Source: an uncultured Candidatus Binatia bacterium (GTDB lineage Bacteria > Desulfobacterota > Binatia > UBA9968 > JAJDTQ01). From it: a stretch of 64,000 bases of DNA. The translations under genes and the position numbers were made by a program. The notes below the pieces were generated by a model. It did not search any database. It saw nothing but the letters and a program-made list of their open reading frames with translations, and was not told the origin of the DNA. Shown one piece after another: positions 4,776 to 44,056 of the stretch. Position 1 is the first letter of the stretch. The number at the start of each line of letters is the position of its first letter. The DNA is taken from contig OZ241979.1 of NCBI GenBank assembly GCA_965204235.1, forward strand, positions 2,744,907 through 2,808,906. Direction: 5' to 3'.

Positions 4776-4843
4776 GGAGACCTCTGAACGATTGCCTCCG
4801 TTCGTCCTGAGCGTAGCGAAGCGAAGTCGAAGGACGCGCTTTG
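4776..4843 (+). repeat. MITE-like repeat copy 1 (left half only)
   Basis: ggagacctctgaacgattgcctccgttcgtcctgagcgtagcgaagcgaagtcgaaggacgcgcttt matches the family consensus. Right half missing. Confidence 0.8.
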
Positions 4844-5588
4844 GCACAGGGCGTTGGCCAGCGCTTCCCGCGGCGCGGCACAACGCGCCATCGCGCAACA
4901 GTCCGAGTCCGCGCAGGAGTTCCTGGGGGTCCATGCTTCCCGGCTCTGCCAGTCTGCCGCGCCGGATCGCCTCGGCAACCGTGCGGCGAATCTCGTCCGC
5001 GTCGAGGTCTTCGACCCGCCAGCCGGCTGCTGTCCGGTTCTCCCAGCGCCGTTCGCTGTGCATGCGCTCGAACAGCATCCGTCCGTACTCGTCGGACGAC
5101 AGGGCCACTGTGGCATTCCCGATCCGGCGGTAGGCGGCGCCGCGGTAGGTGTAGGGCTGCGTCGGCCCCCGGCTCACGATGATCGCGACGACCTCGCGGT
5201 CGCCCTTCACGCGCACCCGCTCGACCGCGGGAAACGCCGGCGGTTCGATCCTCCGGATCTCGGCGCTGACCTCTTCGATGGTTCTTTCCCCCACCTGCTG
5301 GCCTGTCACGTTCCCGTCCGGCGTCACGCCGAACAGCACGTGCCCGCCCCGCTGGTTGAGCATGGCGCAGACCGTTTGAGCCGCCTCGCGGCGCATGCCT
5401 GTGGTGGCCTTGAACTCCAGACTTTCGGACTCGCCGGAGGCGGCCAAGGTGGTGATCTGGTCAGAGGTCATGGAGTGCATCCGTAATCGGACTTGCCTCG
5501 TGCCGTTGGCTTGTTCCGCACGTCGGTTGTCCGTTCAAAACGCTTGACACAGGCTTCCGTCAGGGGATAAGGTAAACCACTTTCAAGT

Positions 5589-5647
5589 CCCTCCCTGACG
5601 ACAAGGGCCCAAGGGGCCCTCTCCGGCGACGGAGTAGTCAGGGAGGG
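5589..5647. other. Nested inverted repeat (11-bp outer stem, inner GGGCC/GGCCC hairpin)
   Basis: ccctccctgac (5589-5599) is the perfect reverse complement of gtcagggaggg (5637-5647). Lies between the SLOG-like stop and the AlbA_2 remnant start. Confidence 0.6.
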
Positions 5648-5738
5648 CATCCTCTCCTGCCTCTCTGCGAAGATTCTCACTTGCCAATCAGGAATTGGCC
5701 CGTCTCATCGGCCGGCTCAAGTCGTCTATGCATTGTTT

Positions 5739-6575
5739 CTATCCTTTCCGAACTGAGCTGCCGCGAGTTCCAGAATTGCGCAGCCGGCGAAGCCCTTGCA
5801 TGACCAAGGTGACGGCTTGATCGAGATGCGGGGTGCAGGCGAGTACCTGGTTCTCTTCCGTGGAAAGCCCATTGTTCAAATCGTTTTGCGTATAGCGTTT
5901 GAACTGCTTACGACCCGGCCAAGGTGGACGAGAGCCTGCCCAGGTATCCACAAGTCCAACGGTTTCTGCGATGTCACGGGTACAGCCGCCGAAGCCGCCG
6001 ATCAGAAAGAGCGGCTGACCGACCTCAAGCGACAGCAGGGCTTCTTCTGCGATGCCCGGCATATTCCCTTTATAGCCTTCTACCCGTCCGCCGAGCACGA
6101 TGCGGGCATCCGTCTCTCCCCGCATGGTCCTCCGCATCGCCGTCAGTCCCGGTCCCCATTCGTGCTCGTCTGGTTCATGTGACGGCAAGGTGTGGCGATC
6201 TTCCATTGACATCCACCGGCCGTCCTGTCCGATGAGGGCAAGTTGAGCGAATCCTTGGAGTTCAGCGGCGAGCGTGTCCAGGTCGGTAGCCTTCATACGG
6301 ACATGGACCGGCCATGCCAGGTAGTCAATCACCCTCGCGTCAGTATCCTCCTGCCGTCGATAGCGCATGACCAACTCGAACAGCAGTTCCGTAAAACCAC
6401 CGAGCCGCAGATCGCCGCCGTAGGCCAAGTTCGACCCCGAGGCGAGAAGATAGATCGCAAACTCCGCCACAGCCTCCCGCAAATGGCCTTCACTGAATCC
6501 GAGCACGGCCATATCAGGACTGTCGGACATGGAAATGGCGATGATTTTTGGCGGTTGGGCGTCGATTGCGCTCAT
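5739..6575 (-). CDS. SLOG/LOG-like Rossmann-fold protein (putative nucleotide-signal sensor), stand-alone
   Basis: 278 aa with glycine-rich motifs AYGGDLRLGG and LIGGFGGCTRDIAE reminiscent of the LOG/SLOG PGGxGTxxE. Its ATG is 4 nt from the stop of the TIR gene. Confidence 0.5.
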   Translation of the reverse strand: MSAIDAQPPKIIAISMSDSPDMAVLGFSEGHLREAVAEFAIYLLASGSNLAYGGDLRLGGFTELLFELVMRYRRQEDTDARVIDYLAWPVHVRMKATDLDTLAAELQGFAQLALIGQDGRWMSMEDRHTLPSHEPDEHEWGPGLTAMRRTMRGETDARIVLGGRVEGYKGNMPGIAEEALLSLEVGQPLFLIGGFGGCTRDIAETVGLVDTWAGSRPPWPGRKQFKRYTQNDLNNGLSTEENQVLACTPHLDQAVTLVMQGLRRLRNSGTRGSSVRKG

Positions 6576-6832
6576 TGCTCAATCCTCCATCAGCCAATCG
6601 GCCAAGGTGTACAGACGCACGCCGGGAACGATGTCGGCAAAGAGCCGTATCTCTTCCAAGCCCAATGGGGGACCGGGATAAACGAGAGTACGTTCGGCGG
6701 CGCCGGCATTATCCATCAAGTTCGAGAGCAAAATCAACTCCGGCGGTCGTGCCGTGAACATGACCTGCGGATGTGAGCCACGGAACCCTTCAATCCGCTG
6801 CCGCCAAAGGAAATCCTTGAACAATTCGTCAA

Positions 6833-8062
6833 GGAACCTCTGAACAATTCAGGAATTGAGATGGAGGCATTCCAGATGCAGTTGATGGGAACGTCATGAG
6901 TATCATTTGGCGTCGGAGGGCGGTGTAGAAACGAGGATCCGGGTGTCGATCGAGGGTTTGAGCACCCCTGGAAGCATGTTCCAGGGGTGCTTTCCCTGCA
7001 TTCTACGCAGTCGCACGCAATAATTCCCTCTTCGCCATCAGCATGTTGACCAAAGCACAAGTGATGAGCAAGTAATGCTCATTCTTCCACAGCCCCTTGT
7101 ACCTGAGCCGGGTGAACCCGAATCGCCTCTTCATCACCCCGAACACATGCTCCACCTTCGCTCGCACACGCGACTTGCTCCGGTTCCGCCTCCGATCCTC
7201 TTCCGTCAAAGGTCGATTCCTCTGTCCCTTCCGGTGGGTAAAGTCCTGAGCCCTCGGCGCCCGCTCCCGGATCACCTTGCCCTGTCCCCCATACGCCGAG
7301 TCTCCCCACACCCGCGTCTCCCGCCCGTGCAACAACTCCCCCAGCTTCTGCGAATCATGCACGTTCGCCGCCGTCGCCACCACCGAATGGATCTGCTTCG
7401 TCCGACTGTCCACCCCCACGTGCGCCTTCATCCCGAAATACCACTGATTCCCCTTCCGCGTCGAATGCATCTCCGGATCCCGCTGCCTCCCCTTGTTCTT
7501 CGTCGAGGCCGCCGCCTGCAGGATCGTCGCATCCACAATCGTTCCCGTCGATACCTTCAGCCCCTTCTCTTCCAGATGCCCATTCACCTTGCGAAACACT
7601 TCCTTCCCCAACTCATGGCGCTCCAACAAGTGCCGAAACTTGCAGATGGTCGTCTCATCCGGCACACGCTCCTCTCCCAAATCCACCCCCACGAACTCCC
7701 GCATGGCTCGCGAATCATACAGCGCTTCCTCCACCCCGGGGTCCGACAGGCTGAACCAGTGCTGCAAAAAATGAATCCGCAACATCCGCTCGATCCCCAC
7801 CGGGCGCCGTCCCGCTCCCGGAGGCTGCGGATAGTACGGCTCCACCGCCTCCACCAACTCCTCCCACGGGATCACCCCGTTCATCTCCTCCAGGAACTTC
7901 GCCTTCCGCGTCTGCCTGCCGTACTTCTCGAAATTCACCGCCCCGAACGTCCGCTGCTGCATTCCGATAGCCTCCCTCTCCCTGATATCCTCCGATTCTA
8001 CTCCTTGCCTTTTCTTTTCGCTACCATTATCCTCCCGCGGAGGGGAATAAATCAGAGGTTCC
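6833..8062 (-). mobile_element. IS5-family insertion sequence (1230 bp) with 4-bp target duplication TCAA
   Basis: Ends GGAACCTCTGA (6833-6843) and TCAGAGGTTCC (8052-8062) are inverted repeats. TCAA at 6829-6832 and 8063-8066. One DDE transposase ORF inside. Confidence 0.88.
7003..7962 (-). CDS. IS5-family DDE transposase
   Basis: 319 aa from MQQRTFGAVNFEKYG. Has the typical IS5/IS4 N-terminal region (RMLRIHFLQHWFSLSD) and DDE_Tnp_1 region (IVDATI...WGDSAY...VEHVFGVMK). Confidence 0.9.
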   Translation of the reverse strand: MQQRTFGAVNFEKYGRQTRKAKFLEEMNGVIPWEELVEAVEPYYPQPPGAGRRPVGIERMLRIHFLQHWFSLSDPGVEEALYDSRAMREFVGVDLGEERVPDETTICKFRHLLERHELGKEVFRKVNGHLEEKGLKVSTGTIVDATILQAAASTKNKGRQRDPEMHSTRKGNQWYFGMKAHVGVDSRTKQIHSVVATAANVHDSQKLGELLHGRETRVWGDSAYGGQGKVIRERAPRAQDFTHRKGQRNRPLTEEDRRRNRSKSRVRAKVEHVFGVMKRRFGFTRLRYKGLWKNEHYLLITCALVNMLMAKRELLRATA

Positions 8063-8978
8063 TCAAGAAGGAGTGAGGCGACCTGATCCATCCGGTCTCT
8101 GTTGTCGGGGTTCATGCGGATGCTCGGTACATTTCCGAGGTATGGGAAAGCCCGCTCGTCAACCGTTTGCAGGCAGTTGACTACCACCATCGGAACATTT
8201 CTGCGTTTCGCCTCTATCACTTCATGGCGGCACCACTCCCGAGAGGAGTAAGAGTCGGTATAGACGGTCACCATGGCGCCATCCTGAATGGAGTCGTCTA
8301 TGACGGAGGAGAAGGACAGCCCTGGCGGTATATCATGGACATCGAGAAAGCTCGATAACGCGCTGTTGTTGTGAAGCCAGTCACGGACGGCTCTGGCGAC
8401 TACATCTCCATGATCGTCGTGCTTGGAGTGGCTGAGGAAGACCTGGATGTTCTGCCGGTAGCGCTGAAGGTCGCCTCTATCGTCGGTATGTTGTCCCAGG
8501 CGATGTCTGAGCATCCGACTGAACTCATAAGTGAGGTCTCGGCAAAGCCGTTGTTCTCGTTCGAGATGGCTTCCCTTCCAGCGGTCCCAGCGTAGCGCCT
8601 GTATGTCAAGACCGATGTCGAGGCTTCCCGCTTCCAGCGCGACGGGAAACACGCGAGCGCCAAAGCCTTTCTCCTCGGCCTCTCTTGTGAGTTCTCTGAC
8701 GTACTGCGTCCACTCGGGGTCGTTCGCAAGCGCGTTGTCCAGCAGCACTACTGCAGCCGTGGTTTCGGCTTCGCTCCAGTCAACGGGCAGAGGGGTAGTG
8801 GAACCCGGGGCGTTGATGTTGCGAAAAAGGACCGTAACACCGGCTCCGCCAACAACGTTGCGATAGCGGTCGGTGCCGAAGTGGTGGCGAAGATAGGCGG
8901 CGATTCTCTCTCCATCAGCGTATCCGGGGTGCCAGACGACGTAGAGCGTGAAGGGAGGTCGGCTCATGATTTCCACGA

Positions 8979-9644
8979 TCAAGACCCTCTTGTACCGAAA
9001 CCGCCGGCTCCACCGAGCACCGACAAGTCAAGTTGACTCACCCGAGTCTCTCCTGTTATCAGCTTGTGCAGCAATGCCTTGGATAGTTCGTCCAGCAGCC
9101 CCCGTTTTTGATCGGTTATTTTCAGAGCCTCGCGTACCCTTCCCAATACCGTAACCATGGCCTTCTGCTCATCAATGACTGGGTGTGGCACTTCGAGCGC
9201 CGCCAGCCGGCTGCGCGACAGGTTCGGGATCGTGGTCTTGTTGCCCGCACCCTCGAAGATGCCAAGTTGCGTGAAGGCCGACTGCAGGAAGTACACGTAG
9301 AAGCGTGGCTCGACGTCTTTGGCGATGGGCCGCAGCCGATGCAGGTGGTTCTGGAACGCCATCGGTTCGATCTCCCCGTTCCAGATCGCCGCGCGCCCGA
9401 TCTCGCCGCCTTCACAGACGAGCAAGTCCCCCGATCGGAGTAACTTGGCGGGCAATTCATGCTCGGGAATCCACATTTCGTCCACGGACGACAGGTCGAT
9501 CTTGTCCCAGAGGACGTTCGACGTGCGCAGGAACGGGATTTTGTGAGCACCGCCGCGGGCGGCGGCGGACATGGTTTTGCCCGCGCCGATCTCGAACAAC
9601 TCCCCGAGTGGTCGCCATGTCCAGGAGGGATTCATGGCGTTCAT
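8979..9644 (-). CDS. hsdS: Type I R-M specificity subunit, half-size (single TRD)
   Basis: 221 aa with one target-recognition domain plus a conserved C-terminal helix ([17 protein letters not shown]). Overlaps the hsdM stop by 4 nt. Confidence 0.85.
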
Positions 9645-11494
9645 TGCAGGGGCTCCAGCATTTTTGTCAGCGCTTTGTCGATCTTCCGGGCTTCAGCGTC
9701 GAGGCGTTGCATTTCGGCAAGAATGTCCTTGATGGGCCGCAATGTCCCGGCCCCCGTCTGTCCCACCCACCGACTCGGACTCAGGTTGTAGTCGCCGTCC
9801 TCCGCCTGCTCCCGCGTGATGACGGCCACCTCGCCTTCGACCGGCTCCCCCTTCACGAAGGCCTCCGCCAGCGGACGGATGTCCTCTTCCGGGATGAAGT
9901 TCTTGGGTCGGCCCTTGCGCACGCGCCGGCTGGCGTTCAGCAGCACGATCCGGTCCTTTCGCGCTGCGGGCTTGCGCTTGGACAGCACCACGACCACGCC
10001 TGCGGCGCTGGTGTTGTAGAAGAGGTTGTCGGGCAGCAGGATCACGCCGTCGATCAGGTCGTGGTCCACGAACCACTTGCGGATGTTGCGTTCGCGGTCC
10101 TCGTGCTTGCTGCCCGAACCGCGCGTCACCGCGCCGGTGTCGAGCACCACCGCGGCCCGGCCGCGTTCGTTCAGGCAGGCGAGGGTGTGTTGGAGCCATG
10201 CCCAATCGCCCTTGCCGCTGGTGACGCCGCCGCGGGGGCGGAAGCGGTCGAACGGGTCGTTGGCGAACAGGTCGGGGCTGAACGGCTGGTTCCACATGGG
10301 GTTGGCGACCACCACGTCGTGCGCGGCGATGCGGCCCGCGGGGGTCTTGAACTTCGGGTTGATCATGGTGTCGCCGCGCTCGATTTCCACTTCCATGTCG
10401 TGGATGATGGCGTTCATGTGGGCGACCGCGTAGCTCTCGGCCTGCAACTCCTGGCCGTGCAGCTTGAGCGGCACGCGGCTGGTGGGGTCCATCTCCCGGG
10501 CCACGAGTTGGAGCTTGACCAGCAGCCCGGCCGAGCCGCAGGCGTAGTCGTGGCATTGCTCGCCGGGCCTCGGGCGCATGAGGTGCGCCATCAGGAAGCC
10601 GACCTCGGTGGGGGTGAAGAACTCCCCGGCGCTCTGGCCGGAACCTTCCGCGAACTTGCGCAGCAGGTATTCGTACGCGCGGCCCAGGAAGTCGGGCTGC
10701 ACGTCGGCAAGGCCGAGCCGGTAACGCGGGTCGGAGAAGGTCTCGACCACCGCGGCGAGCTTCGCCGGGTTGACGTCCCGCTCGCCGTTGCGCTCCGCGG
10801 CAAAGTCCACCAAGTCGATGACGCCCGCAAGCGAGGGGTTGTGCCGCGCCACCGCGCGGGTTGCCTTGGTCAGGTGTTCCCCGATGTCCCTTGGTCGGGT
10901 GCTGCGTCCTTGGCCGTCCAGAGGCCATTCATGGTCTGCACGACCGCTGATTACTCCCCATCGCGCTTCCGGGGGCAGGTAGAAACGCAGCACCTCATGG
11001 TCGCTCTCGGCGATCTCCTGCGCCACGTCCGGGTCGCCGTATTCTTCGGCCAGCCGCTTGATCTCGTCGTCGAAGACGTCCGACAAGCGCTTGAGGAAGA
11101 GGAGCGGCAACAGGTAGTCTTTGAATTTGGCCGCGTCCTTCTCCCCGCGGATGGAGCAGGCCGCGTCCCAGAGCATCTGCTCCATGGGCTTGGTGGAAGG
11201 ATCGGTCATCCGCCGCCGGCGAGACCGCCTCCGCGTCACCTGGGCCACGGCTTCGGCGGGAGCAGCCGTCGCCTCCACCCCGTCCACGGCCGCTTCCGCG
11301 GCGAGGGCGACGATGGCCTCTTGGGACGCCTTCTGCGGCGTGGCTGCTCCCCCCTCCCAGCGGTTTACGCTGGCGAAGGAGACTCCGAGCCTTTCCGCAA
11401 GCTGCTCCTGTGTGAGGTCGAGTTTGGCGCGGATGGCGCGCAAGGTGCTTGAAACGGCGCTTACTTCTGGCATATCTGTCATGTTTGCATACAT
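9641..11494 (-). CDS. hsdM: Type I R-M N6-adenine DNA methyltransferase with N-terminal XRE-type HTH
   Basis: HsdM_N and N6_Mtase regions ([18 protein letters not shown]). First ~60 aa are [23 protein letters not shown], an HTH_3-like motif. Confidence 0.9.
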
Positions 11495-11585
11495 AACATC
11501 TGTTCAGATGGTTTTCCAGCCCCTCCGAACGGCTCGGACTTCAGGGTAGGTGCCTACGGTAGTGGGATTATGGTATCTTGCCGGT

Positions 11586-12878
11586 ATGCAAAGACGCCGG
11601 TTGCCAACGGAGAGCGTGATGGATGACGCGGACCTGAGACGCCGCATCCGGCTCGGTGAGGACTCGATCCTGGAGTTCAAGGCTGTCGTCGTCTCCGGCG
11701 GTAGTGTCGCTGCGCCCGACCGGAATGCAATCGCGGATGAACTGGCTGCCCTGGCCAACAGCCGGGGAGGGACGTTGGTCCTCGGCGTGGGCGACAAGAC
11801 TCCCCGGATCCAAGGTATTCCACTTGACGGTCTCGACGCGGTAGAAGGCTGGGTCCGCGAGATCTGCAACGACTCGGTGAAGCCTCCGTTGGATGCCGAT
11901 ATCCTCAAGATCGAGTTGGAGAATGCGGAGGGTCAACTCGTCCCCTTATTGCGGGTGGACGTTGGGCGCGGCTTGTTCGTTCACCGGAGCCCGGGCGGGT
12001 ACTTTCGCAGGGTCGGCAGTTCCAAGCGCGAGATGACCCCGGAGGTCCTTGCCCGGCTGTTCCAGGAACGCAGCCAGACCCGGCTCATCCGTTTCGACGA
12101 GTCCGCGGTGCCCGGCGCGGCGCCATCCGATCTGCACTACTCGCTGACGCAACGTTTCCTGCAGGGAGACGCCGTCGATGCTCCTTCCACGTCGTCGCAC
12201 GACGACGCCCTCGAAGCGTCCGAAGACATGTTGCGCAAGCTCCGCATCGTCACCGAGGATCTGGACGGAAACGCTCGCTTGACGCTCGCCGGTGTCCTCC
12301 TCTGCACGCCGGAACCGCAACGGTGGCTCCCTCATGCCTACATACAGGCCGTCAGCTACGCCGGCGAGCGCACCGACGCCGACTACCAGAGCGATGCGCG
12401 CGACATCGGGGGGCCGCTCGACGAACAGGTTGCGGAAGCGCTGCACTTCGTGCGGCGGAACATGCTGGTGCGAGCAACCAAGGCCCCCGCCCGGTCGGAC
12501 CGCCCTCAGTTCAGCGAGCGGGCCGTGTTCGAGGCCATCGTGAACGCAGTGGCTCACCGCGACTATTCCATGGCCGGCGCCCGCGTGCGCCTGCACCTGT
12601 TCGGCGACAGGCTGGAACTCTACGTACCCGGCGCGCTGGTCAACACGCTGACCCCGGACAGCCTGCACCTGCGGCAGGCGAACCGGAACGAGCTCATCGT
12701 ATCCCTGTTGTCGCGTTGCAAGGCGCCAACGGGCGTCGGGCGCACACGGCTGATGGACCGGCGCGGGGATGGAGTGCCGATCATTCGTCGGGAATGCCGA
12801 GAGTTGTCGGGACGGCTGCCCGATTACGGCCTCATCGACGACAGCGAACTGCGCCTGGTGATGTGGACCGCGGCGTAG
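11586..12878 (+). CDS. AlbA_2 + HATPase_c_4-type putative transcriptional regulator (RecG-like DNA-binding protein)
   Basis: LEFK...GGTLVLGV AlbA_2 N-terminus and AIVNAVAHRDY ATPase-like C-terminal module. Start ambiguous (11550/11586/11619). Confidence 0.75.
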   Translation: MQRRRLPTESVMDDADLRRRIRLGEDSILEFKAVVVSGGSVAAPDRNAIADELAALANSRGGTLVLGVGDKTPRIQGIPLDGLDAVEGWVREICNDSVKPPLDADILKIELENAEGQLVPLLRVDVGRGLFVHRSPGGYFRRVGSSKREMTPEVLARLFQERSQTRLIRFDESAVPGAAPSDLHYSLTQRFLQGDAVDAPSTSSHDDALEASEDMLRKLRIVTEDLDGNARLTLAGVLLCTPEPQRWLPHAYIQAVSYAGERTDADYQSDARDIGGPLDEQVAEALHFVRRNMLVRATKAPARSDRPQFSERAVFEAIVNAVAHRDYSMAGARVRLHLFGDRLELYVPGALVNTLTPDSLHLRQANRNELIVSLLSRCKAPTGVGRTRLMDRRGDGVPIIRRECRELSGRLPDYGLIDDSELRLVMWTAA

Positions 12879-12887
12879 GGAGCGGAC

Positions 12888-13670
12888 TTGAGCGATACAA
12901 AGCAGATCGTCTGCCTTGCGAACTCCCGGAAGCTATCGGGCCGGTACATCGCGGGCCGAGAATGGAGCGAAGAACGTGGAGCAGGGAACTGGATTCGGCC
13001 GGTGAGCGACAGGGAAGGCGGGGAAGTGTCCGAGTACGAGCGCCAGTACGAGGACGGCAGCGACCCCCAGGTGCTCGACATCATCAGCATCCCGGTTATC
13101 GAGCCGCAGCCCAAGGACTGGCAAACGGAGAACTGGTTGCTGGACCCCGAGTTCTACTGGCGAAAGGAGGGAAGGTACTCGTGGTTCGACCTTGCCGATC
13201 TCCTGGATCCCGTTGCGCCGCTTTGGATCGACGGGTACAACACCTCCAATGGGCGGCATGACAAGATACCGTTGGATTTTGTGGATACGCTCCTTCAGCG
13301 ACCTGAAGACGGCTTGGTTCGCGGACGGCACGACAAGGTACCGCTGGATTCGTTGGAGTCGGTTTCCGGTTCGCTGCGCCTCATCCGTGTCGAGCGGCTC
13401 GAATTCTCCGTGTTCAAGCCCGGCGAGGCATTCGGCAACGCCAAGCGGCGCGTGCAGGGGCGGTTCTCCTACGCCGGCAAGGACTATGCGCTCTGGGTGA
13501 CCGATCCCTTGTACGAACGGCAGTACTTGGCGAAGCTGGACGGCGTTTACGAGATCGGCGAATGCTACTTGACCGTCAGTCTCGGAGAACCGTACCGAGA
13601 CGCCTGCTATAAGCTCATTGCCGCGATCATCGAGTGCGACCCGCGGCAGCGGCGCGAGCGACGCAGATGA
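12888..13670 (+). CDS. Hypothetical protein (conserved-looking N-terminus IVCLANSRKLSGRYIAG)
   Basis: 260-aa ORF with a TTG start preceded by GGGAG. Coding-like composition and an internal GRHDK(I/V)PLD duplication. No family recognised. Confidence 0.55.
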   Translation: MSDTKQIVCLANSRKLSGRYIAGREWSEERGAGNWIRPVSDREGGEVSEYERQYEDGSDPQVLDIISIPVIEPQPKDWQTENWLLDPEFYWRKEGRYSWFDLADLLDPVAPLWIDGYNTSNGRHDKIPLDFVDTLLQRPEDGLVRGRHDKVPLDSLESVSGSLRLIRVERLEFSVFKPGEAFGNAKRRVQGRFSYAGKDYALWVTDPLYERQYLAKLDGVYEIGECYLTVSLGEPYRDACYKLIAAIIECDPRQRRERRR

Positions 13671-13759
13671 CGGACCAGCCGATCTTCACGGTCGGCCACT
13701 CCAACCACTCGTGCATCGCCTTCGTGCGCGAGAGTCCTGGCGCGGGGCCGGAACGGTAG
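13667..13759 (+). pseudogene. DUF488-like N-terminal fragment (30 aa)
   Basis: MTDQPIFTVGHSNHSCIAFV resembles the DUF488 N-terminus (IYTIGHSN). Its ATG overlaps the upstream stop (ATGA), and a stop follows after 30 codons. Confidence 0.45.
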
Positions 13760-13770
13760 ATCCCGTGAGG

Positions 13771-13878
13771 ATGTGGACCATCGGCTTCACCCGGAAGCCC
13801 GCTCGCCGATTCTTCGAGTTGCTGCGTCAGCCGGCCGCCCTTCCCGCTCCCCGTCACTCTCCGAACGTGGCGCGGTAG
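13771..13878 (+). pseudogene. Second DUF488-like N-terminal fragment
   Basis: MWTIGFTRKPARRFFELLRQ resembles the DUF488 start (TIGF..K.AE.FFELL). It runs into the 3-prime end of the convergent gene. Confidence 0.4.
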
Positions 13879-14558
13879 TCCTCCCATGCCTTCGGGCCTG
13901 CCCGGTCGAAGACCTTCTCGCGTACTCCGCCGGCGTATTGCGCGGGAATGAAGTTGATCTTCTCGGTGAACGAGGGCTTCAGGCGAACGCCCTTGGCGCG
14001 CAACTCGTCCGCCATGACGAGGTTGTCCAGGACCGTGCGGATCTCCTCGTGGTCGGTCCACATGGCCTTGTACGCCACCCGTCCGTCCTTGCCGACGATA
14101 TAGACCATGTTGGGGAGGACGCCGTAGAGCCGATGCACGGCGCCTTCGATGTCGTCCACCAGCAACGGGTTCTCGATGCCGTCCTGCTCCCGGCACTGGC
14201 GCGCGTATTCGAGCTTTTGCTCGAAGTCCGCGTGTGGACCGTAGTGCTCCCCGGGATGGGGCTCGCGCACGTAGATGGTGAGGAACTCGAAGCCTCGGTC
14301 TCGGTAGTTCCGGTACAGTTCGTTGAGGGGCGAGACCTCGCCCACGAAGGGCGGTCAGGTGATGCTGCCGAACTCCAGCAGTACGTGCTTCCGATCCCGG
14401 AACCCGGAGAGCCGAACCGTGTCCCCTTCGAGGGTCCGGAGGCTGAAGTCGGGCGCCTCCTCGCCCGCCCGCAGGCGCCCGGCGAAGTCTCCAGCCTTGT
14501 TCGAACTCTCCGACCGGTTGAAGGTATGGTAGTTGTAAGCGGCCACCGACGGGTCCAT
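13854..14558 (-). CDS. Iodothyronine-deiodinase-like thioredoxin-fold selenoprotein (in-frame TGA = Sec at 14355-14357)
   Basis: ORFs 14355..14630 and 13854..14345 share a frame and are joined by one TGA. The junction reads LLEFGSIT-U-PPFVGE, then FLTIYVREPHPGE. AGGAGG/AAGGAG lies upstream of ATG 14558. Confidence 0.8.
14329..14342 (-). promoter_or_regulatory. SECIS-like hairpin 12 nt downstream of the UGA
   Basis: The mRNA reads UGA-N12-GGCGA GGUC UCGCC: a 5-6 bp GC stem with a GGUC apical loop, as in bacterial SECIS elements. Confidence 0.6.
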
Positions 14559-14676
14559 CCGTTGCTCCTTTCCTCCTGGGGCTGACTTGCAGCCCGTCCG
14601 ACATGCGGGAACCTGCTCCGAAGAATCCACTCCGAAACTACTACGAAACCGGCGGACGGTTCCACCACCGGACTTC

Positions 14677-14770
14677 GGAACCCCTGAACGATCGGGACAA
14701 GGGGTATGAGCGCGTCCTTCGACTCCGCTTCGCTGCGCTCGGGACGAACGGGGACAGGGGGGTCAGGACC
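14677..14770 (-). repeat. MITE-like repeat copy 2 (degenerate)
   Basis: ggaacccctgaacgat...gcgcgtccttcgactccgcttcgctgcgctcgggacgaacgg. Its degenerate end overlaps the rluD stop codon. Confidence 0.7.
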
Positions 14771-15731: not shown

Positions 15732-15864
15732 GGGAAAGAAGGCCGCCGGTCAGATGGCCGCCGGTTTCCGCGGGGACCGACATCGCAGCTTGTTCCTTTC
15801 GCCAGTGGATTGCAACGGAACCGCGCCGTTGCGGTCCTTCCGCCCGGTTCACTTACCCGATTAT

Positions 15865-15973
15865 GGAACGTCTGGTCCATTCCGGCTTGAGTTCCCTCCC
15901 CCCTATGGGAAAGCGCGTCCTTCGACTTTGCTTCGCTACGCTCAGGACGAACGGGGCAATCGTCAGAGTTTCC
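15865..15973 (-). repeat. MITE-like repeat copy 3 (complete, 109 bp)
   Basis: Both terminal repeats are present (ggaacgtctggtccattcc ... caatcgtcagagtttcc) around the conserved core. Confidence 0.85.
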
Positions 15974-16032
15974 CGGCTCTTCAGGCTTTCGTGTAGGTTG
16001 TGACGCTTCCTCCCACGCGAAGAACTCCGATC

Positions 16033-16055
16033 CCCTCCCCCCTTGAGGGGGAGGG
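16033..16055. repeat. C-run/G-run hairpin (ccctccccc ...5 nt... gggggaggg) followed by a second G-run
   Basis: Perfect 9-bp inverted repeat read directly, in the rluD/ubiD-like divergent intergenic region. Confidence 0.6.
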
Positions 16056-16083
16056 TTAGGGAGGGGGGGCCCGCACCGACGGA

Positions 16084-16118: not shown

Positions 16119-16159
16119 TTGCGATTGACGGGCGCGGTCCCGCGCCTTAGACTTGGCCG

Positions 16160-32792: not shown

Positions 32793-32836
32793 GATCCGCT
32801 GGTTGCGGCGACTCCACAGGCCTGTCAAGTACATGG

Positions 32837-33790: not shown

Positions 33791-34044
33791 CTGACGGACT
33801 CGCTTGCGTCGCCTCTCTCCGAACCCAGGTAGTTCAAGAGGCGTTCCTGCACCGCCGTTTCGTTGCGGGTCTCGCACTCCCAGAGGACGAGGACCTGCCA
33901 GCCAAGTCGTTTCAAGGCGTCTTCGTTTCGGTGATCTCGGGCGACGTTCTGGCTGAACTTGTCGGTCCAGAACTGAATCAAATAAGAAGTGTTGGCGAGG
34001 GTAGCGCTGGGTGGGCCACAAACCCCACGCTCGCCCGCAGGCAT
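33787..34044 (-). pseudogene. vsr: Very-short-patch repair endonuclease, C-terminal fragment only
   Basis: FWTDKFSQNVARDHRNEDALKRLGWQVLVLWECE matches the Vsr C-terminus. The N-terminal catalytic half is absent, and the first ~20 codons come from a 72-bp repeat element. Confidence 0.65.
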
Positions 34045-34071
34045 GAGAGTCGTGCGAATGCTTCCAGCGCC
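34000..34071 (-). repeat. Structured ~70-nt repeat, family 2, copy 1
   Basis: The reverse complement aligns with 43851-43919: GGCGCTGGAAGCA...ACTCTCATGCCTGCGGGCGAGCGYGGGGTTTGYGKCCCRCCCAGCGCYACC. Confidence 0.7.
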
Positions 34072-34190
34072 ACTACTCCATTCTTAATCCACCCCGTGGT
34101 CATTGTCAATCTGCCGCGGGTCCGCCTCTGCGCCGCGGCCGCATGGGCAGACGGACTCCTGCACCGGCTCGACCGGCGGTGGCATCCGCA

Positions 34191-34637
34191 TCAGACGTCG
34201 CTCCCGGCGTCCTGGACGGAGACCGCTGCGGAGAAGCCGCCGTTTTCGAGGCGCCGCCGCAGCTCCTCGCTGCCGCCCTGGGCCATGAGGTCGAGGATCT
34301 CGCGGCGGACGGCGGGGTAGGTGCTGCCTGGCGGGAGGGGTCCCACGAGGGGGCGCCAGTCCGCGGCCAGGTCGATGGCGGCCTCCTCGATCAGTTCCGC
34401 GTTGCGGCGGGCGGCGGCGGAGGCCAGGGCTGCGTCGGGCGCCCGGCCGGGCGGGAGTGCAGGGGCCGCGGGCGCGGGTTCCCACTCCCCGCCGTAGACG
34501 TCCAGGACGTGCTTCAGGGTCGGTCGCAGGCCGGAGGTGCGGGCGATCTGCTCCTCGCGGGTGGCGCGCCGGTCGAGGTCCTCGGGGGGCTCGGTGTCGT
34601 GGTGGATCCGCGGCGTGGCCGCGCCGGGGAAGTTCAT
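34191..34637 (-). CDS. Hypothetical protein
   Basis: 148 aa from MNFPGAATP, with coding-like composition. No motif recognised and the start is uncertain. Confidence 0.45.
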   Translation of the reverse strand: MNFPGAATPRIHHDTEPPEDLDRRATREEQIARTSGLRPTLKHVLDVYGGEWEPAPAAPALPPGRAPDAALASAAARRNAELIEEAAIDLAADWRPLVGPLPPGSTYPAVRREILDLMAQGGSEELRRRLENGGFSAAVSVQDAGSDV

Positions 34638-34715
34638 GGTCGTCCCGTCGCCGCGGCGCGTGCGCATGGACGCTGGACCGTCCGGGGTCGATCTGCTAGA
34701 CGTACACCCTTTCAA

Positions 34716-34825
34716 GGAACCTCTGAACGATTCCGGCTTGAGGCGCCTCTCCCTATGGGAAAGCGCGTCCTTCGACTTCGCTTCGCTACGCTCAGGACGA
34801 ACGGGGGCAATCGTTCAGGGTTTCC
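34716..34825 (-). repeat. MITE-like repeat copy 10 (complete, 110 bp)
   Basis: ggaacctctgaacgattccggcttgaggcgcctctccctatggg...gggggcaatcgttcagggtttcc. Confidence 0.88.
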
Positions 34826-34867
34826 CTGATATGGCTGCCTGGGGCCCTCCAAGTGATCCATTCCGCA

Positions 34868-36909: not shown

Positions 36910-37018
36910 GGAAACCCTGAACAATTGCCCCCGTTCGTCCTGAGCGTAGCGAAGCGAAGTCGAAGGACGCGCTTTCCCACAAGAGAGGCGCTTCAAGCCG
37001 GAATTGTCCAGAGGTTCC
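36910..37018 (+). repeat. MITE-like repeat copy 11 (complete, 109 bp)
   Basis: ggaaaccctgaacaattgcccccgttcgtcctgagcgtagcgaagcgaagtcgaaggacgcgctttccc...gaattgtccagaggttcc. Confidence 0.88.
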
Positions 37019-37075
37019 TTGACACGCCGTGCGGGTGTTTCTAGTGTTGCGTCTGGCAGGCTGGCGGGCGCGGTT

Positions 37076-37489: not shown

Positions 37490-37580
37490 GGAAACCCTGG
37501 ACAACGATCCCCGTCCCTGGACAACGATCCCCGTTCGTCCTGAGCGTAGCGTAGCGGAGTCGAAGGACGGGCTTTCCCAG
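37490..37580 (+). repeat. MITE-like repeat copy 12 (right end missing; 21-bp tandem duplication ccctggacaacgatccccgt)
   Basis: ggaaaccctggacaacgatccccgtccctggacaacgatccccgttcgtcctgagcgtagcgtagcggagtcgaaggacgggctttccc. Confidence 0.8.
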
Positions 37581-37993: not shown

Positions 37994-37996
37994 CCC

Positions 37997-39370: not shown

Positions 39371-39538
39371 GAGTGGCGCTTCAGGAATTCGTGTGGGCAA
39401 GATAGGAGGGAAAGATGATCGACAGGGGTCGGGACAGCATTCCACCGCTTCCGCGGGGCCTGCCCCGGCAGGCAGTAAGCCGGGGGGCTGGCCCCGCGGA
39501 CGCCCACGCCATCATTCCCGCGAAAGCCCACTCCCGTC

Positions 39539-39558
39539 ATTCCCGCGAAAGCGGGAAT
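39539..39558. repeat. REP-like hairpin attcccgc-gaaa-gcgggaat (with an upstream half copy at 39511-39528)
   Basis: Perfect 8-bp stem with a GAAA loop read directly, in the dnaB downstream spacer. Confidence 0.7.
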
Positions 39559-39832
39559 CCATCCATTCTTGTGAAAACTCCTCGTGCTTTCATCCTTCCG
39601 ACCCAACCCCATGGCGCCCTGCATCACTGGACACCAGTTGGTTGGATACGAGGTTCCTGAATCCGTGGCAAGCGCTATCCAGAGAGAAAAGCGGCCAGGA
39701 AATGGAATCGGGCAAGGAAAATTGAGCGGATCGAAAAGGATAATCCGAGCGGGAGCGCATTACATGGAAGCCAAGCAAAAAAGCAATGCCGAACTGGCCG
39801 AAGTAGGAACTCCAAGACCATGACCGAATATG

Positions 39833-39910
39833 GGAACCTCGGAACGATTGCCCCCCGTTCGTCCTGAGCGTAGCGTAGCGGAGTCGAAGGACGCGCTTTC
39901 CCACAGGGAG
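39833..39910 (+). repeat. MITE-like repeat copy 13 (right end missing)
   Basis: ggaacctcggaacgattgccccccgttcgtcctgagcgtagcgtagcggagtcgaaggacgcgctttccc. Confidence 0.8.
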
Positions 39911-39927
39911 GAAGGAACGAGGGGCTG

Positions 39928-42747
39928 ATGAGGCTTTCCTGGAACGAGGTCCGTGCGCGGGCTGCGGACTTCGCCCGCGAGTGGGCGGACGCGGCTTACG
40001 AGAAGGGCGAGACCCACAGTTTCTACAACGACTTCTTCGAGATCTTCGGCGTCAAGCGGCGCACGGTGGCGCGCTACGAGGAACACGTCCGACGCCTCGA
40101 CGACACCAGCGGCTTCATCGACCTGTTCTGGCCGGGGGTGCTCCTGGTGGAGCAGAAGAGCGCCGGCCGCGGCCTTGCTGCGGCCCGGGAGCAGGCCGGC
40201 GCCTACTTCGACGCGCTCCCCGAGCGCGACCGTCCCCGCTACCAACTCCTCTGCGACTTCCGGACGTTCGAACTCCTCGACCGGGACGAGGGGGAGGAAT
40301 GCCGCTTCGCCCTGGCCGACCTGCCCGGGCACGTGGAGGAGTTCGGGTTCATCCTCGGCGTGCAGCGCCGCACGTTCCGGGACCAGGACCCGGTCAACGT
40401 CCGGGCGTCCGAGTTGGTGGCGCGGCTGCACGACGCGCTCAAGGCCTCGGGCTACGCCGGCCACGACCTGGAACTGTTCCTGGTGCGCACCGTCTTCTGC
40501 CTCTTCGCCGACGACACCGGCATCTTCGAGCCGCGGGACGTCTTCCTCGACTTCCTGGAGGAACGGACGGCTGCGGACGGCAGCGACCTCGGCCCCTGGC
40601 TGGCCCGGCTGTTCCAGGTGCTGCACACGCCGGAGGACCGGCGGCAGGCGAAGCTGGACGAGGACCTGGCCCGCTTCCCGTACGTCAACGGCGACCTCTT
40701 TGCCGAACCGCTCCGCATCCCGGACTTCGACGCTGCCATGCGCCAAGCCCTGCTCGACGCCGGTCGGTTCGACTGGACCGCGATCTCTCCGGCCATATTC
40801 GGGGCGCTGTTCCAGTCGGTGATGGAGCCGGTGGAGCGCCGGGCCGCAGGCGCCCACTACACCACCGAGAAGAACATCCTGAAGGTGATCGAGCCGCTGT
40901 TCCTCGACCACCTGCGGACGGAGTTCGCGCAACTCAAGGCAAGACGCGACAGCCGCAGAGTGCCCGACCTCCACGTCTTCCAGCGGAAGCTCGGGGCGTT
41001 GCGGTTCTTCGACCCCGCGTGCGGCTGCGGCAACTTCCTCATCATCGCCTACCGCGAGTTGCGCGCCCTGGAGATCGAAGTGCTGCGGGAACTGAATCCG
41101 GGCCAGCGCCAGTTCGAGATGCTTGCGGACGTGCTGTCGGTGGTCAACGTGGATCAGTTCCACGGCATCGAGATCGGCGAGTTTCCGGCCCGCATCGCAT
41201 CCACCGCGCTGTGGATGATGGACCACATCATGAACAACCGTCTGAGCCTGGAGTTCGGTCGGACCTACGCGCGGATACCCATCGAGAAGTCGCCCCACAT
41301 CCGCAACGCCGACGCCCTGGAGACGGACTGGGCCGAGGTGCTGCCGCCGGAGGAATGCGACTACGTCTTCGGCAACCCGCCCTTCGGCGGGTCCAAGCAC
41401 CAATCCACGGAGCAACGGGCGCAGGTGCGCCGCATCGCCGCCCTGGGCGGCAGCGGCGGGACCCTCGACTACGTGGCGGCGTGGTTCGTCCGCGCCGGCG
41501 AGTACGTCCGGAGCGCGCCGGGGGAAAAAACGCCCCGCATCGGCTTCGTGGCCACCAACTCGATCACGCAGGGCGAACAGGCGGCGCAACTGTGGCCGGT
41601 CCTGTTCGACCGCCATCGTTTGGAGATCGCCTTCGCGCACCGCACCTTCGCCTGGGGCTCGGACGCCCGGGGCATGGCGCACGTCCACGTGACGATCATC
41701 GGCCTCGACGCCGCGGAACGCGGGTCAACGCCCAAGCGCCTCTTTTCCTACGAGGACGTGAAGGGCGAGCCCCTCGAAAGCCGCCACGCCGTGATCACAC
41801 CCTACCTGTTCGACGGCGGCGGACTGGCGAACCCGCACCTGGTCGTGCGGGAGGAGGGTCGGCCGGTCAACGGGCTGCGCCAACTGATCACAGGCTCCCA
41901 GCCCATTGACGACGGGCTTTACATCTTCAATGCCGAGGAACGACTCGTGTTCCTGGACGCCGAGCCTGACGCCGAACCGTTCTTACGCCCCTTCGTCGGC
42001 GCTCGTGAATACCTTCAGGGCGGCGAGCGCTGGATCCTCGTCTTGCATGACGCCTCGCCCGGCGCGCTGGCCCGGCTGCCGCGCGTCCGGGAACGTATCG
42101 CCGCGGTCCGCGCCTGGCGGCAGACCAGCAAACGCAAGTCCACGTTGAAACTGGCCGACACGCCCACGCTGTGGCAAGTTAACGTACTCCCGACCACACC
42201 GTTTCTCGTTCTTCCGCAGGTAAGTTCGGAACGCCGGGAATATGTCCCAATCGGATGGCTGGAACCGCCAATCATCCCCAGCGACAAGCTCCGGTTGTTG
42301 CCCGATGCGACCCTCGCGGATTTCGCGCTTCTCACTTCGGCCATGCACATGGCCTGGACGCGGGCGGTGACAGGCCGCATGAAGAGCGACTACATGTACT
42401 CCGTCGGCGTCGTCTATAACACGTTTCCGACGCCGCCTGGCTGGACGAACGAGAACGCGGATTCTTCGGCGCCGGCAACGCTGGCGCAAGCGGTGCTCGA
42501 CGCCCGCGCCGCTCACCCGGAAGCGACCCTGGCTCAACTGTACGACCCGGACCTCATGCCGCCGAACCTCCGCAAGGCGCATCAGCAACTCGACCGCGCC
42601 ATCGACCGCCTCTACCGCAGAGCCGCGTTCGCGTCCGAACGGGAGCGAGTCGAGCACCTGTTCACTCTCTACGAGCGCCTCCAAGCCCCCCTCGTCGCAA
42701 AAGCCGCGGAGCGACCCAAGCGCAAACGCCGCCGCACCGGACCATGA
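39928..42747 (+). CDS. MmeI-like Type IIL restriction-modification enzyme (fused nuclease, N6-A methyltransferase and TRD)
   Basis: 939 aa. N-terminal PD-ExK-like FIDLFWPGVLLVEQKS, AdoMet motif FFDPACGCGNFL, catalytic GNPPFGG, and a long TRD tail. Confidence 0.85.
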   Translation: MRLSWNEVRARAADFAREWADAAYEKGETHSFYNDFFEIFGVKRRTVARYEEHVRRLDDTSGFIDLFWPGVLLVEQKSAGRGLAAAREQAGAYFDALPERDRPRYQLLCDFRTFELLDRDEGEECRFALADLPGHVEEFGFILGVQRRTFRDQDPVNVRASELVARLHDALKASGYAGHDLELFLVRTVFCLFADDTGIFEPRDVFLDFLEERTAADGSDLGPWLARLFQVLHTPEDRRQAKLDEDLARFPYVNGDLFAEPLRIPDFDAAMRQALLDAGRFDWTAISPAIFGALFQSVMEPVERRAAGAHYTTEKNILKVIEPLFLDHLRTEFAQLKARRDSRRVPDLHVFQRKLGALRFFDPACGCGNFLIIAYRELRALEIEVLRELNPGQRQFEMLADVLSVVNVDQFHGIEIGEFPARIASTALWMMDHIMNNRLSLEFGRTYARIPIEKSPHIRNADALETDWAEVLPPEECDYVFGNPPFGGSKHQSTEQRAQVRRIAALGGSGGTLDYVAAWFVRAGEYVRSAPGEKTPRIGFVATNSITQGEQAAQLWPVLFDRHRLEIAFAHRTFAWGSDARGMAHVHVTIIGLDAAERGSTPKRLFSYEDVKGEPLESRHAVITPYLFDGGGLANPHLVVREEGRPVNGLRQLITGSQPIDDGLYIFNAEERLVFLDAEPDAEPFLRPFVGAREYLQGGERWILVLHDASPGALARLPRVRERIAAVRAWRQTSKRKSTLKLADTPTLWQVNVLPTTPFLVLPQVSSERREYVPIGWLEPPIIPSDKLRLLPDATLADFALLTSAMHMAWTRAVTGRMKSDYMYSVGVVYNTFPTPPGWTNENADSSAPATLAQAVLDARAAHPEATLAQLYDPDLMPPNLRKAHQQLDRAIDRLYRRAAFASERERVEHLFTLYERLQAPLVAKAAERPKRKRRRTGP

Positions 42748-42795
42748 GACCCGGCAAACGTTCCTCGACGCCTACGGAAGTTCCCTGACGCTTAC

Positions 42796-42870
42796 GGAAC
42801 GCTTGGCCCATTCCGGCTTGAGTTCCCTCTCCCTACGGAAAGCGCGTCCTTCGACTTCGCTTCGCTACGC
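42796..42870 (-). repeat. MITE-like repeat copy 14 (one end missing)
   Basis: ggaacgcttggcccattccggcttgagttccctctccctacggaaagcgcgtccttcgacttcgcttcgctacgc. Confidence 0.8.
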
Positions 42871-43003
42871 GGTCTGTACCGATCGGAGTTCTCCGCCATG
42901 CCGAACCATGCCAAACCGAGGAGGGCATGGTCGGAATGGGAGGGAAGCGGATCTCCTCGCGTGCGTGGAGGGTGTCTCAACCCACACGAATCCGCGGTTC
43001 CGG

Positions 43004-43432
43004 CTACGCTGCCCGGTCCTCGACCACCAAGCCGCGTCCGACAGCTCGGAGGGCCTTCTCCACCTGACCGATGTGGGAGCGATGGTCGGGGTTCAGCAGC
43101 TTGCGTACGGCACCCTCGCTCAGACCCAGGCGAGCGGCGAGAGCGACCTTGGTGACGCCCTGACTGCGCATCGCCGAATAGAGGGCGAGCTTGGCCGCGG
43201 CGACGGGCGGAACGGCGACGAGTTCCTGGCTTGGGGCGGCGGCGCTTGGAGCCGGGATCCCCTCACGGCACTGAACGCAGGCGCCCAGAGCCGCGGCCAA
43301 GGCATCCTCGGCCATGGCCAGCGCCTCGGCGCGATCCTCGCCGCAGGTGATGGCTTCAGGCACGTCCGGGAAAGAGACGGAGAAACCGCCGCCCTCCTCG
43401 GGAGTCAGCACGCAGGGGTAGGCGTAGCGCAT
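43004..43432 (-). CDS. hicB: HicB-family antitoxin (RNase H-like fold plus C-terminal HTH)
   Basis: YPCVLTPEEGGGFSVSFPDVPEAITCGEDRAEAL HicB N-terminus and a C-terminal HTH (TKVALAARLGLSEGAVRKLL). Confidence 0.85.
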   Translation of the reverse strand: MRYAYPCVLTPEEGGGFSVSFPDVPEAITCGEDRAEALAMAEDALAAALGACVQCREGIPAPSAAAPSQELVAVPPVAAAKLALYSAMRSQGVTKVALAARLGLSEGAVRKLLNPDHRSHIGQVEKALRAVGRGLVVEDRAA

Positions 43433-43638
43433 CAGAAGTCCTCCTTGGGGATATGCAGTTGCTTCAGCATGCCTTGAAAGACGCCAGTCTTGAGTTCGCC
43501 ATGCTTGACGACCGTGCGACGGTCACCGAGGTGGAGCACGCCGTGGCTACCCTTCCCGTGGCGTGGGTCGAAACGGAACGGCTTCCCGACTCTCCTCGCG
43601 TAGCGTCTGGCTCGCCTGACGAATTCGATTCCGTTCAC
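43432..43638 (-). CDS. hicA: HicA-family mRNA interferase toxin
   Basis: GKGSHGVLH...HGELKTGVFQGMLKQLHI motif. Its stop overlaps the hicB start. Start uncertain (GTG 43638, within an ORF open to 43791). Confidence 0.75.
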   Translation of the reverse strand: MNGIEFVRRARRYARRVGKPFRFDPRHGKGSHGVLHLGDRRTVVKHGELKTGVFQGMLKQLHIPKEDF

Positions 43639-43850
43639 GGTCCGAATTTCGTACCTTTCGGTAAAAAAAGCAACCGGGTCCGTGAGGTTTCGGTCACCGC
43701 GGTTCCTCCGCACGTACGGAGATAGACCCCCAGCCTTCAGCGCGGCCCTGTCTGCCCAGGTCGAGGATGACCGGATGTATGTCCGGGCCACATGACCAAG
43801 ACCCTGCTCCCTGATCGACAGTGGCGGCGGCCTGTGCTAGGTTCCGGGCT

Positions 43851-43919
43851 GGCGCTGGAAGCAGCAATACTCTCATGCCTGCGGGCGAGCGCGGGGTTTG
43901 CGTCCCGCCCAGCGCCACC
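43851..43919 (+). repeat. Structured ~70-nt repeat, family 2, copy 2
   Basis: 8-bp outer stem GGCGCTGG/CCAGCGCC enclosing a 5-bp hairpin GCGGG/CCCGC. Copy 1 has GTGGG/CCCAC at the same place, a compensatory change. Confidence 0.7.
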
Positions 43920-43946
43920 TTTCTCGGTTTCCTGCTATCCTCTTGA

Positions 43947-44056
43947 GGAACCTCCGATCAATTCCGGCTTGAGGCGCCTCTCCCTACGGGAAAGCGCGTC
44001 CTTCGACTTCGCTTCGCTACGTTCAGGACGAACGGGGGCAATTGTTCAGGGTTTCC
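43947..44056 (-). repeat. MITE-like repeat copy 15 (complete, 110 bp)
   Basis: ggaacctccgatcaattccggcttgaggcgcctctccctacggg...gggggcaattgttcagggtttcc. Confidence 0.88.

Follow-up and report, generated by a model that had tools for sequence, protein, structure and literature searches.

Miniature inverted-repeat elements with IS5-type ends in the chromosome of a sponge-associated Candidatus Binatia bacterium and their probable mobilisation by a resident IS5-group transposase

A 64,000-nucleotide stretch of the chromosome of an uncultured Candidatus Binatia bacterium (contig OZ241979.1 of assembly GCA_965204235.1, positions 2,744,907 to 2,808,906; the whole stretch is hereafter the window) carries a dense set of short repeats, which are true miniature inverted-repeat transposable elements (MITEs) of type II, i.e. 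elements with ends like those of an insertion sequence (IS) and an unrelated interior. Their IS-type ends, together with several further lines of evidence, indicate that they were most likely mobilised in trans by the transposase of the resident IS5-group element, one copy of which lies in the window at 6833-8062; we assign this explanation a probability of about 0.78. The original prediction, made from the letters of the window alone, had likewise regarded the repeats as non-autonomous elements of the IS type, and this view is supported by their non-coding unit, inverted ends, 4-bp target duplication, copy number, empty orthologous sites and nesting.

The terminal 18-mer of the repeat has 14 matches in the window with up to three mismatches, whereas shuffles that preserve the dinucleotides give an expectation of 0.03. 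A profile built from the five complete window copies (the nhmmer profile of what is here termed family 1) recovers all 15 loci that had been listed earlier, with E-values from 8e-38 to 4e-4, and a repeat finder independently returns the same loci as overlapping families, confirming that the repeat set is real. This corresponds to one element per 4.3 kb (15 copies in 64 kb), with copies in both orientations, as predicted, and with lengths that range from 58 to 175 bp in the window and from 91 to 224 bp outside it. Alignment of the copies and comparison of their modules yielded the same size classes as were first described, namely five copies of 109-110 bp, three module-expanded forms, one 58-bp deletion and six truncated copies (Table 1). 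The copies are located in intergenic DNA or at gene ends, a distribution that might have arisen from a preference for A+T-rich targets combined with selection. They have no coding capacity: the open reading frames (ORFs) that cross them are only mechanical read-throughs, and it is in such frames that the peptides FVLSVAKRSRRTRF and KRVLRLRFATLRTNG are found, just as had been claimed. No credible copy was recovered past 44056 in the window with the family 1 profile, and the profile of a second family (see below) agrees, so that the housekeeping block at 44-64 kb, which holds nusA, infB, rbfA, pnp and purB, is indeed free of them. Two of the earlier assignments required correction. The copy at 4776 is real, but it does not stop at 4843 and runs to about 4855, while the one at 14677-14770 is no degenerate copy of the same repeat; comparison of its flanks and the second profile identify it as a truncated member of the second family.

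The two ends of each element form terminal inverted repeats, both of which fit GGAAmCyCTGAwCrATT over 18-20 nt; in family 1 the majority A end is GGAAACCCTGAACRATTG and the B end is GGAACCTCTGATCAATTC. Expansion of family 1 copies is brought about by an internal 33-nt module (32-34 nt), which is present in one to three tandem copies and results in forms of 143, 126 and 175 bp at 22263, 24596 and 26857 respectively. The 143-bp form possesses a second module with the diagnostic start CCTCCGTTCATCC, which recurs at many unrelated loci of the Binatia genome. The sharing of this diagnostic module by unrelated loci implies that the two-module form originated once and was subsequently amplified, and in the 175-bp copy a third module has been added. 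The second family was recognized from the flanks of many profile hits that spanned only model positions 17-64. Its members are 131-141 bp long and begin with GGAACCTCTGAACAATCGAGACATCCGGGATGGATTCCC, followed by a 48-nt core as in family 1 and then by CATGCCCCCTGTCCCGATTGTTCAGAGGTTCC, with an inverted repeat of about 22 nt. Hence, the repeats that had been claimed as a single MITE family comprise at least two families (~110 bp and ~131-141 bp), which have their ends and the 48-nt core in common. A distinct kind of internal repetition is observed in the truncated copy at 37490, where CCCTGGACAACGATCCCCGT occurs twice at 37505-37544 as a 20-nt tandem duplication that is not present in the same copy of strain L004.

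The public runs that contain window DNA are sponge metagenomes and sponge genome projects. The element word GTCGAAGGACGCGCTTTCCC was found in at least 58 eight-kb stretches of OZ251459.1, the 4.15-Mb sequence of an uncultured Candidatus Binatia bacterium, one of which (L039) is syntenic with window positions 9761-17349 at 87-94% identity. The single match outside Binatia among the matches listed, in a Sulfuricella metagenome-assembled genome (L051), was rejected as a chance 20-24-nt match inside coding DNA. A total of 171 elements was counted in 464 kb of OZ251459.1, giving a density of one per 4.1 kb after the copy selected by the search word in each stretch is discounted, which extrapolates to perhaps 1,000 elements per genome of about 4 Mb. 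The elements account for 2-4% of the DNA (about 4% of the sampled part of OZ251459.1), a load that is high for a bacterium. In the Logan assemblies contigs end at every copy, and the loose ends begin exactly at the element boundaries and have unrelated continuations; the word depth summed over the copies ranges from hundreds-fold to about 2,000-fold of the unique depth, to which other members of the community may contribute. In practical terms the MITE copies interrupt short-read assemblies, yield spurious ORFs and alter annotated gene ends.

Target duplications were analyzed in 36 complete family 1 copies with both flanks, drawn from the window and from 58 loci of OZ251459.1 and oriented alike. 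A 4-bp direct repeat is perfect in 11 of the 36 and matches at three of the four positions in nine others, while a permutation control, in which left flanks were paired with the right flanks of other copies, gave 0.9% perfect and 8% three-of-four matches. There was no excess of 2-, 3-, 5- or 6-bp repeats at the flanks of these 36 copies, and the confinement of the excess to 4 bp implies a duplication of exactly this length, equal to that of the IS. In family 2 a perfect 4-bp repeat is seen in 15 of 33 profile hits, a few elements being counted on both strands. The nine complete copies of the window taken alone display no clear duplication, the signal requiring the larger sample. The flank profile of the MITEs, Y-W-A-R bounded by C on the left and by G on the right, is A+T-rich in a genome of 67% G+C and resembles the YTAR duplications of relatives of the IS. 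A TYRA-like target read from consensus strings of loose ends was dropped, as these strings are majority letters of diverse flanks and in part the element's own end. Insertion of one element into another is seen at L013:1482-1705, where a complete family 1 MITE lies within the core (GCGAAG repeats) of a second. Thus, the follow-up that had been proposed for copy number and target duplications beyond the window returned both the density given above and the 4-bp duplications.

Comparisons between strains, also suggested in the original prediction, recovered polymorphic insertions at 24938, 34716 and 36910. At the 36910 site a contig of a related strain (L064, 93-94% nucleotide identity to the window) reads GGCGGC-TTGA-CACGCC as opposed to GGCGGC-TCGA-MITE-TTGA-CACGCC in the window, and in a more distant complete genome (L066) this site is likewise empty with a single TTGA. 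At the 24938 site L064 reads CGGAAGG as opposed to CGAA-MITE-GGAA in the window. A contig of X18 (~9% diverged) is without both the 34716 and the 36910 copies and joins 34712 to 34866. With sites empty in L064, L066 and the X18 contig, the repeats are not fixed at orthologous positions. The closer strain L004 (97.8%) carries the copies at 36910 and 37490, and these insertions accordingly date from between ~6% and 2% divergence. At 37490 the A half has been kept in the window and the B half in L064, and these complementary halves point to one full element that decayed by deletion. A copy in L039 with a different module number was considered as a possible orthologue of the copy at 15865, but the flanks of the two are offset by ~5 nt. 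In L064 the segment at 26847-27807 is missing, and with it the MITE at 26857-27031 and a gene for a short-chain dehydrogenase (27091-27843); the last ~40 bases of this gene remain in L064, which shows that L064 lost the segment and not that the window gained it. The MITE at 36910 entered the TTGA of a TTGACA hexamer that is followed after 17 nt by TAGTGT (window 37015-37047), and the duplication rebuilds TTGACA on the right side; the promoter scan made no call here, and an influence on expression would be speculation.

The element at 6833-8062 is an IS5-group element. It is bounded by GGAACCTCTGAACAATTC at 6833 and, in reverse complement, by GGAACCTCTGATTTATTC at 8062, which form an inverted repeat of 19 nt with 84% identity. 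The transposase shows significant matches to the Pfam models PF01609 and PF05598 (E = 4e-33 and 8e-22) and to the NCBIfam model NF033581 for IS5 family transposases (352 bits against a cutoff of 140). In its length of about 1.2 kb, its single DDE_Tnp_1/DUF772 transposase of ~320 aa and its 4-bp duplication it conforms to the IS5 group, whereas its ends start with GGAACCTCTGA, unlike the GGAAGGT-type ends of most relatives. In run X9 a full-depth contig joins 6828 to 8063, skipping 1234 bases (1230 + 4), and in run X1, the sample closest to the window, this joint reaches about one third of the depth. This empty-site joint in both runs implies that the insertion is recent and polymorphic, and that the IS is active. 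Depth ratios indicate ~2-25 copies of the IS per genome, varying with the sample. An exact look-up of the window transposase returned nothing, and its relatives were obtained by a protein search, which recovered homologues of 97%, 90% and 87-88% identity in metagenome assemblies from one sample series. The original prediction had named the termini of other IS copies as a check on the link to the MITEs, and among these close relatives (87-97% identical transposases) the termini of the window IS are retained at both ends in L002 and L071 and at one end in L001, where the contig reaches. One contig holds four copies of a relative with 70% identity, at which TTAA or CTAA is duplicated, and 62 more distant relatives have ends of the form GGAAnnTCTGATyWATTC beside CTAG, CTAA, TTAG or TTAA. 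IS5 itself uses YTAR targets. In a comparison with this pattern that includes few close-clade copies, the IS of the window duplicated TCAA and L002 CTTT/CTTA, which in a high-G+C host fit it loosely, while the relatives duplicated TTAA, CTAA and CTAG.

Identity between the MITE B end and the IS amounts to 19 of 21 positions for the IS end at 6833 and to 17 of 19 for that at 8062, and the A end agrees with the 6833 end at 15 of 17 positions (15 of 18 over 18 nt). The 17/18 match between IS end and MITE repeat that was originally noted is therefore true of the B end GGAACCTCTGATCAATTC but not of the majority A end GGAAACCCTGAACRATTG. The ends of family 2 agree with the 6833 end in all of their first 16 nt, and the end of L080, a 66%-identical relative of the IS, is GGAACCTCTGATCAATTC, i.e. 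exactly the MITE B end. The equal length of the duplication, the like target profile, the matching ends, the co-occurrence of MITEs and IS in all examined runs and the activity of the IS together make mobilisation in trans the best explanation, and we infer with good support that this IS clade was involved. The MITEs would then have spread in the Binatia chromosome by cut-and-paste or copy-in through a DDE transposase, duplicating a 4-bp target, with the enzyme most likely supplied in trans by the IS5-group IS. The 33-nt module varies from one to three tandem copies, the two-module form has itself been amplified, and copies decay by truncation.

Several observations weigh against this explanation. 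The MITE insertions that were examined predate the IS insertion, being present in L004 (2% diverged) and breaking contigs in X4, X5, X9 and X11. No more than about a third of the target duplications have stayed perfect, and these (CTCC, CTGC, GAAG, GGCT and others) fit YTAR only loosely. The 464 kb sampled from the MITE-rich OZ251459.1 yielded no transposase homologue. The similarity of MITE and IS is limited to the ~20-28 terminal nt, implying that the interior of the MITEs did not come from this IS and that they are no simple deletion derivative of it. Further, the ends are conserved over a wide clade of the IS5 group, and hence another member of the clade could be the real partner. The support for movement of the MITEs by this particular transposase is circumstantial, namely the equal length of the duplication, the similar target profile and the co-occurrence.

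These same points have a bearing on an alternative under which the repeats, although true MITEs, were amplified not by the resident IS but by a cousin of it, another IS5-group element with ends of the same type that has been lost or resides elsewhere in the genome, and the copies are now mostly immobile fossils. The GGAAnnTCTGATyWATTC ends common to many relatives with 60-70% identical transposases, the identity of the L080 end to the MITE B end, the lack of a transposase homologue in the 464 kb of OZ251459.1, the greater age of the MITE insertions relative to the polymorphic IS insertion and the decay of two thirds of the target duplications would all be compatible with such a history. However, the resident clade has the closest ends that were seen, with the first 11-16 nt identical, and its GGAACCTCTGA prefix is missing from most distant relatives. 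Moreover, the IS was found with the MITEs in every examined sponge run at 2-25 copies, and it makes a 4-bp duplication as they do. We hence consider this alternative unlikely, and mobilisation by the resident clade is preferred.

A further possibility concerns the 48-nt core, which selection might maintain for a function of its own, for example in binding a protein, in forming an RNA hairpin or as a regulatory signal, the elements then being partly domesticated. Conservation is ~92% in the core (positions 19-68) as against ~83% in the terminal repeats and ~70% in the linker, and this holds among copies not picked by the search word. The core is common to two families whose arms differ, is repeated in tandem within copies, and includes CGAAG three times as a direct repeat as well as a CGTCCT/AGGACG stem. 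If it were functional, the ~1,000 elements would not be purely selfish DNA but would distribute a regulatory or structural signal throughout the chromosome of a sponge symbiont that is obligate. However, detection by the profile is biased towards copies with an intact core, and the variable positions of the ends are two-state, resembling subfamily markers and not decay, and these two effects probably account for most of the contrast between core and ends. Folding of the copies as RNA or DNA recovered only the pairing of the ends and was no better than that of shuffles (z = -1.4 to -2.1), the Rfam models gave zero matches in the window at gathering thresholds, and a promoter and terminator scan called no site inside any copy. 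A functional core is on these grounds improbable. That the repeats are instead palindromes of the repetitive extragenic palindromic (REP) or bacterial interspersed mosaic element (BIME) type, conserved in place or spread by a Y1 (REP-associated tyrosine, RAYT) transposase, is scarcely credible: like those of enterobacteria and pseudomonads they are abundant, intergenic, partly palindromic and mosaic, combining shared modules, but REP elements have neither IS-type terminal inverted repeats nor target duplications, whereas the present elements show an exact 4-bp duplication, 18-20-nt terminal inverted repeats that match a DDE-type IS, orthologous sites that are empty and bear the duplicated tetranucleotide only once, and a nested insertion.

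The MITEs described here can also be compared with other bacterial elements. The ATR and Correia elements of Neisseria, a host-associated bacterium, are high-copy intergenic MITEs with ends that point to an IS parent, some of which overlap gene ends; Correia elements duplicate TA. The Binatia elements resemble them in being high-copy intergenic MITEs with IS-type ends and some copies at gene ends, and differ in that the ends and duplications are unrelated and the host belongs to a different phylum. The promoter and terminator scan also revealed none of the promoter features or sites for IHF noted for comparison with Correia elements. Of the MITEs described so far, BrickBuilt of Porphyromonas gingivalis comes closest (Klein et al. 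2015, PMC4596501); its inverted ends match resident IS5-family elements, and its interior holds a minisatellite, a tandem unit that varies in number, and lacks any transposase remnant. The two share ends of the IS5-family type and an internal tandem module in the absence of a transposase remnant. However, the repeats of BrickBuilt are 23 nt long, it occurs in 19 copies per genome, its ends are of the GAGACCTTTGCA type and its duplications are inconsistent (PMC4596501), as opposed to the 33-nt module present one to three times, the ~1,000 elements per genome, the GGAACCTCTGA-type ends and the consistent 4-bp duplication seen here, and there is no sequence similarity between them. The ATR elements of Neisseria are cited along with ISNme1 in the same study (PMC4596501). 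Our search of the literature recovered no paper on MITEs in Binatia or sponge symbionts, and within it the present elements are apparently the first to be described from either. To the concept of IS-MITE relationships they add nothing new, the finding being of an ordinary kind; nevertheless, an active IS and MITE insertions that are dated by strains of 2-10% divergence offer a system for the birth of MITEs, the turnover of their subfamilies and minisatellite change in an uncultured symbiont.

Table 1. MITE copies and the IS5-group element in the window, with the evidence for each.
Feature	Position	Strand	Evidence and remarks
Family 1 MITE, truncated (A end and core, B half missing)	4776-4855	+	nhmmer model positions 5-79, E = 6e-21; at 3' end of Schlafen/AlbA_2 gene (Pfam)
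IS5-group insertion sequence, 1230 bp	6833-8062	-	Inverted ends, TCAA on both sides, empty-site joint; inside TIR-domain gene
Transposase gene, 319 aa (DDE_Tnp_1 and DUF772; IS5 family)	7003-7962	-	Pfam, NCBIfam
Family 2 MITE, truncated (core, right arm and terminal repeat)	14677-14770	-	Family 2 profile positions 49-141, E = 8e-25; flank comparison
Family 1 MITE, complete, 109 bp, between rluD and ubiD	15865-15973	-	nhmmer positions 1-110, E = 4e-32
Family 1 fragment (A end, 35 bp)	16084-16118	-	nhmmer positions 1-35, E = 4e-4
Family 1 MITE, two-module 143-bp subfamily	22263-22405	+	Profile match, module comparison
Family 1 MITE, internal deletion, 58 bp, both ends retained	23169-23226	-	Profile match
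Family 1 MITE, two modules, part of B arm deleted, 126 bp	24596-24721	+	Profile match; fragment only at L064 site
Family 1 MITE, complete	24938-25046	-	nhmmer E = 8e-36; orthologous L064 site empty
Family 1 MITE, three modules, 175 bp	26857-27031	+	Profile match, module comparison
Family 1 MITE, complete, at right edge of strain-specific island	34716-34825	-	nhmmer E = 8e-38; absent from X18 contig
Family 1 MITE, complete, flanks TCGA / TTGA	36910-37018	+	Empty site of relatives is a single TTGA
Family 1 MITE, truncated (A end and core), 20-nt internal tandem duplication	37490-37580	+	Profile match; L064 comparison
Family 1 MITE, truncated (positions 1-77), just upstream of MmeI-like gene	39833-39910	+	nhmmer E = 5e-21; Pfam
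Family 1 MITE, truncated (positions 35-110), just downstream of MmeI-like gene	42796-42870	-	nhmmer E = 2e-17
Family 1 MITE, complete, between hicA and thiE, last in window	43947-44056	-	nhmmer E = 3e-37

Two of the copies listed in Table 1 affect the ends or reading of protein-coding genes. The last codons and the stop codon of the RluD gene (14763-15731, minus strand; Pfam match) are supplied by the family 2 copy, the stop at 14763-14765 lying inside 14677-14770 as had been proposed, and the Schlafen/AlbA_2 ORF (4536-5480, minus strand) reads through the MITE at 4776-4855.

The window is unusually rich in defence genes, including a type I restriction-modification system, an Eco57I-like methylase (19425-21155), a Macro-domain gene, MmeI and HicAB, and the MITEs mark such variable, defence-rich parts of the chromosome. 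The IS splits a TIR-domain gene (8063-8982 and 6579-6832) that adjoins a SLOG-cluster-2 gene (5739-6575), and this TIR/SLOG pair is situated within the type I restriction-modification operon (hsdR 1583-4570, hsdS 8979-9644, hsdM 9641-11494). As the uninterrupted TIR gene is present at full depth in X9 and as a minority in X1, this candidate defence gene is switched off in only a part of the population.

Other defence-related genes are found in strain-specific segments. The segment at 29313-34844 is an island of lower G+C content (0.57-0.63) with a MITE at its right edge; it is missing from L064 and L066, in which the citrate synthase gene is directly followed by the CN-hydrolase gene. The cargo of the island comprises a 714-aa GHKL-ATPase protein, a 433-aa protein without a Pfam match and a Dcm-type cytosine methylase. 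A second segment, at 39375-44093, is located between dnaB and thiE, which abut each other in L066. It contains an MmeI-like type IIL restriction-modification gene (39928-42747) between two truncated MITEs, followed by hicB/hicA. At the equivalent position L003 has hicB and then a gene that, on reading the sequence by eye, resembles the Cas3 HD domain. Clean excision of a MITE-flanked island downstream of dnaB, which was considered for L003 and L004, was rejected, as the islands differ in content and there was no MITE-mediated event. Comparison of window 11550-13670 with L039:3015-4099 showed that a DuOB-domain gene (12888-13670), which lies beside a Schlafen/AlbA_2-HATPase_c_4 gene, is missing in OZ251459.1, where a MITE fills the gap.

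A repeat distinct from both MITE families, GTCATTCCCGCGAAAGCGGGAATCC, is present at 39505-39565 and on the other strand reads as the peptide MDSRFRGND. In L039 (6300-6700) two inverted longer copies of this type flank a family 2 MITE that is inserted between them with a TTCG duplication, and next to them are tandem GGAATGACGG...GTAGGCGTCTG units. The GTCATTCCCGCGAAAGCGGGAATCC-type repeat may thus represent a third family of inverted-repeat elements.

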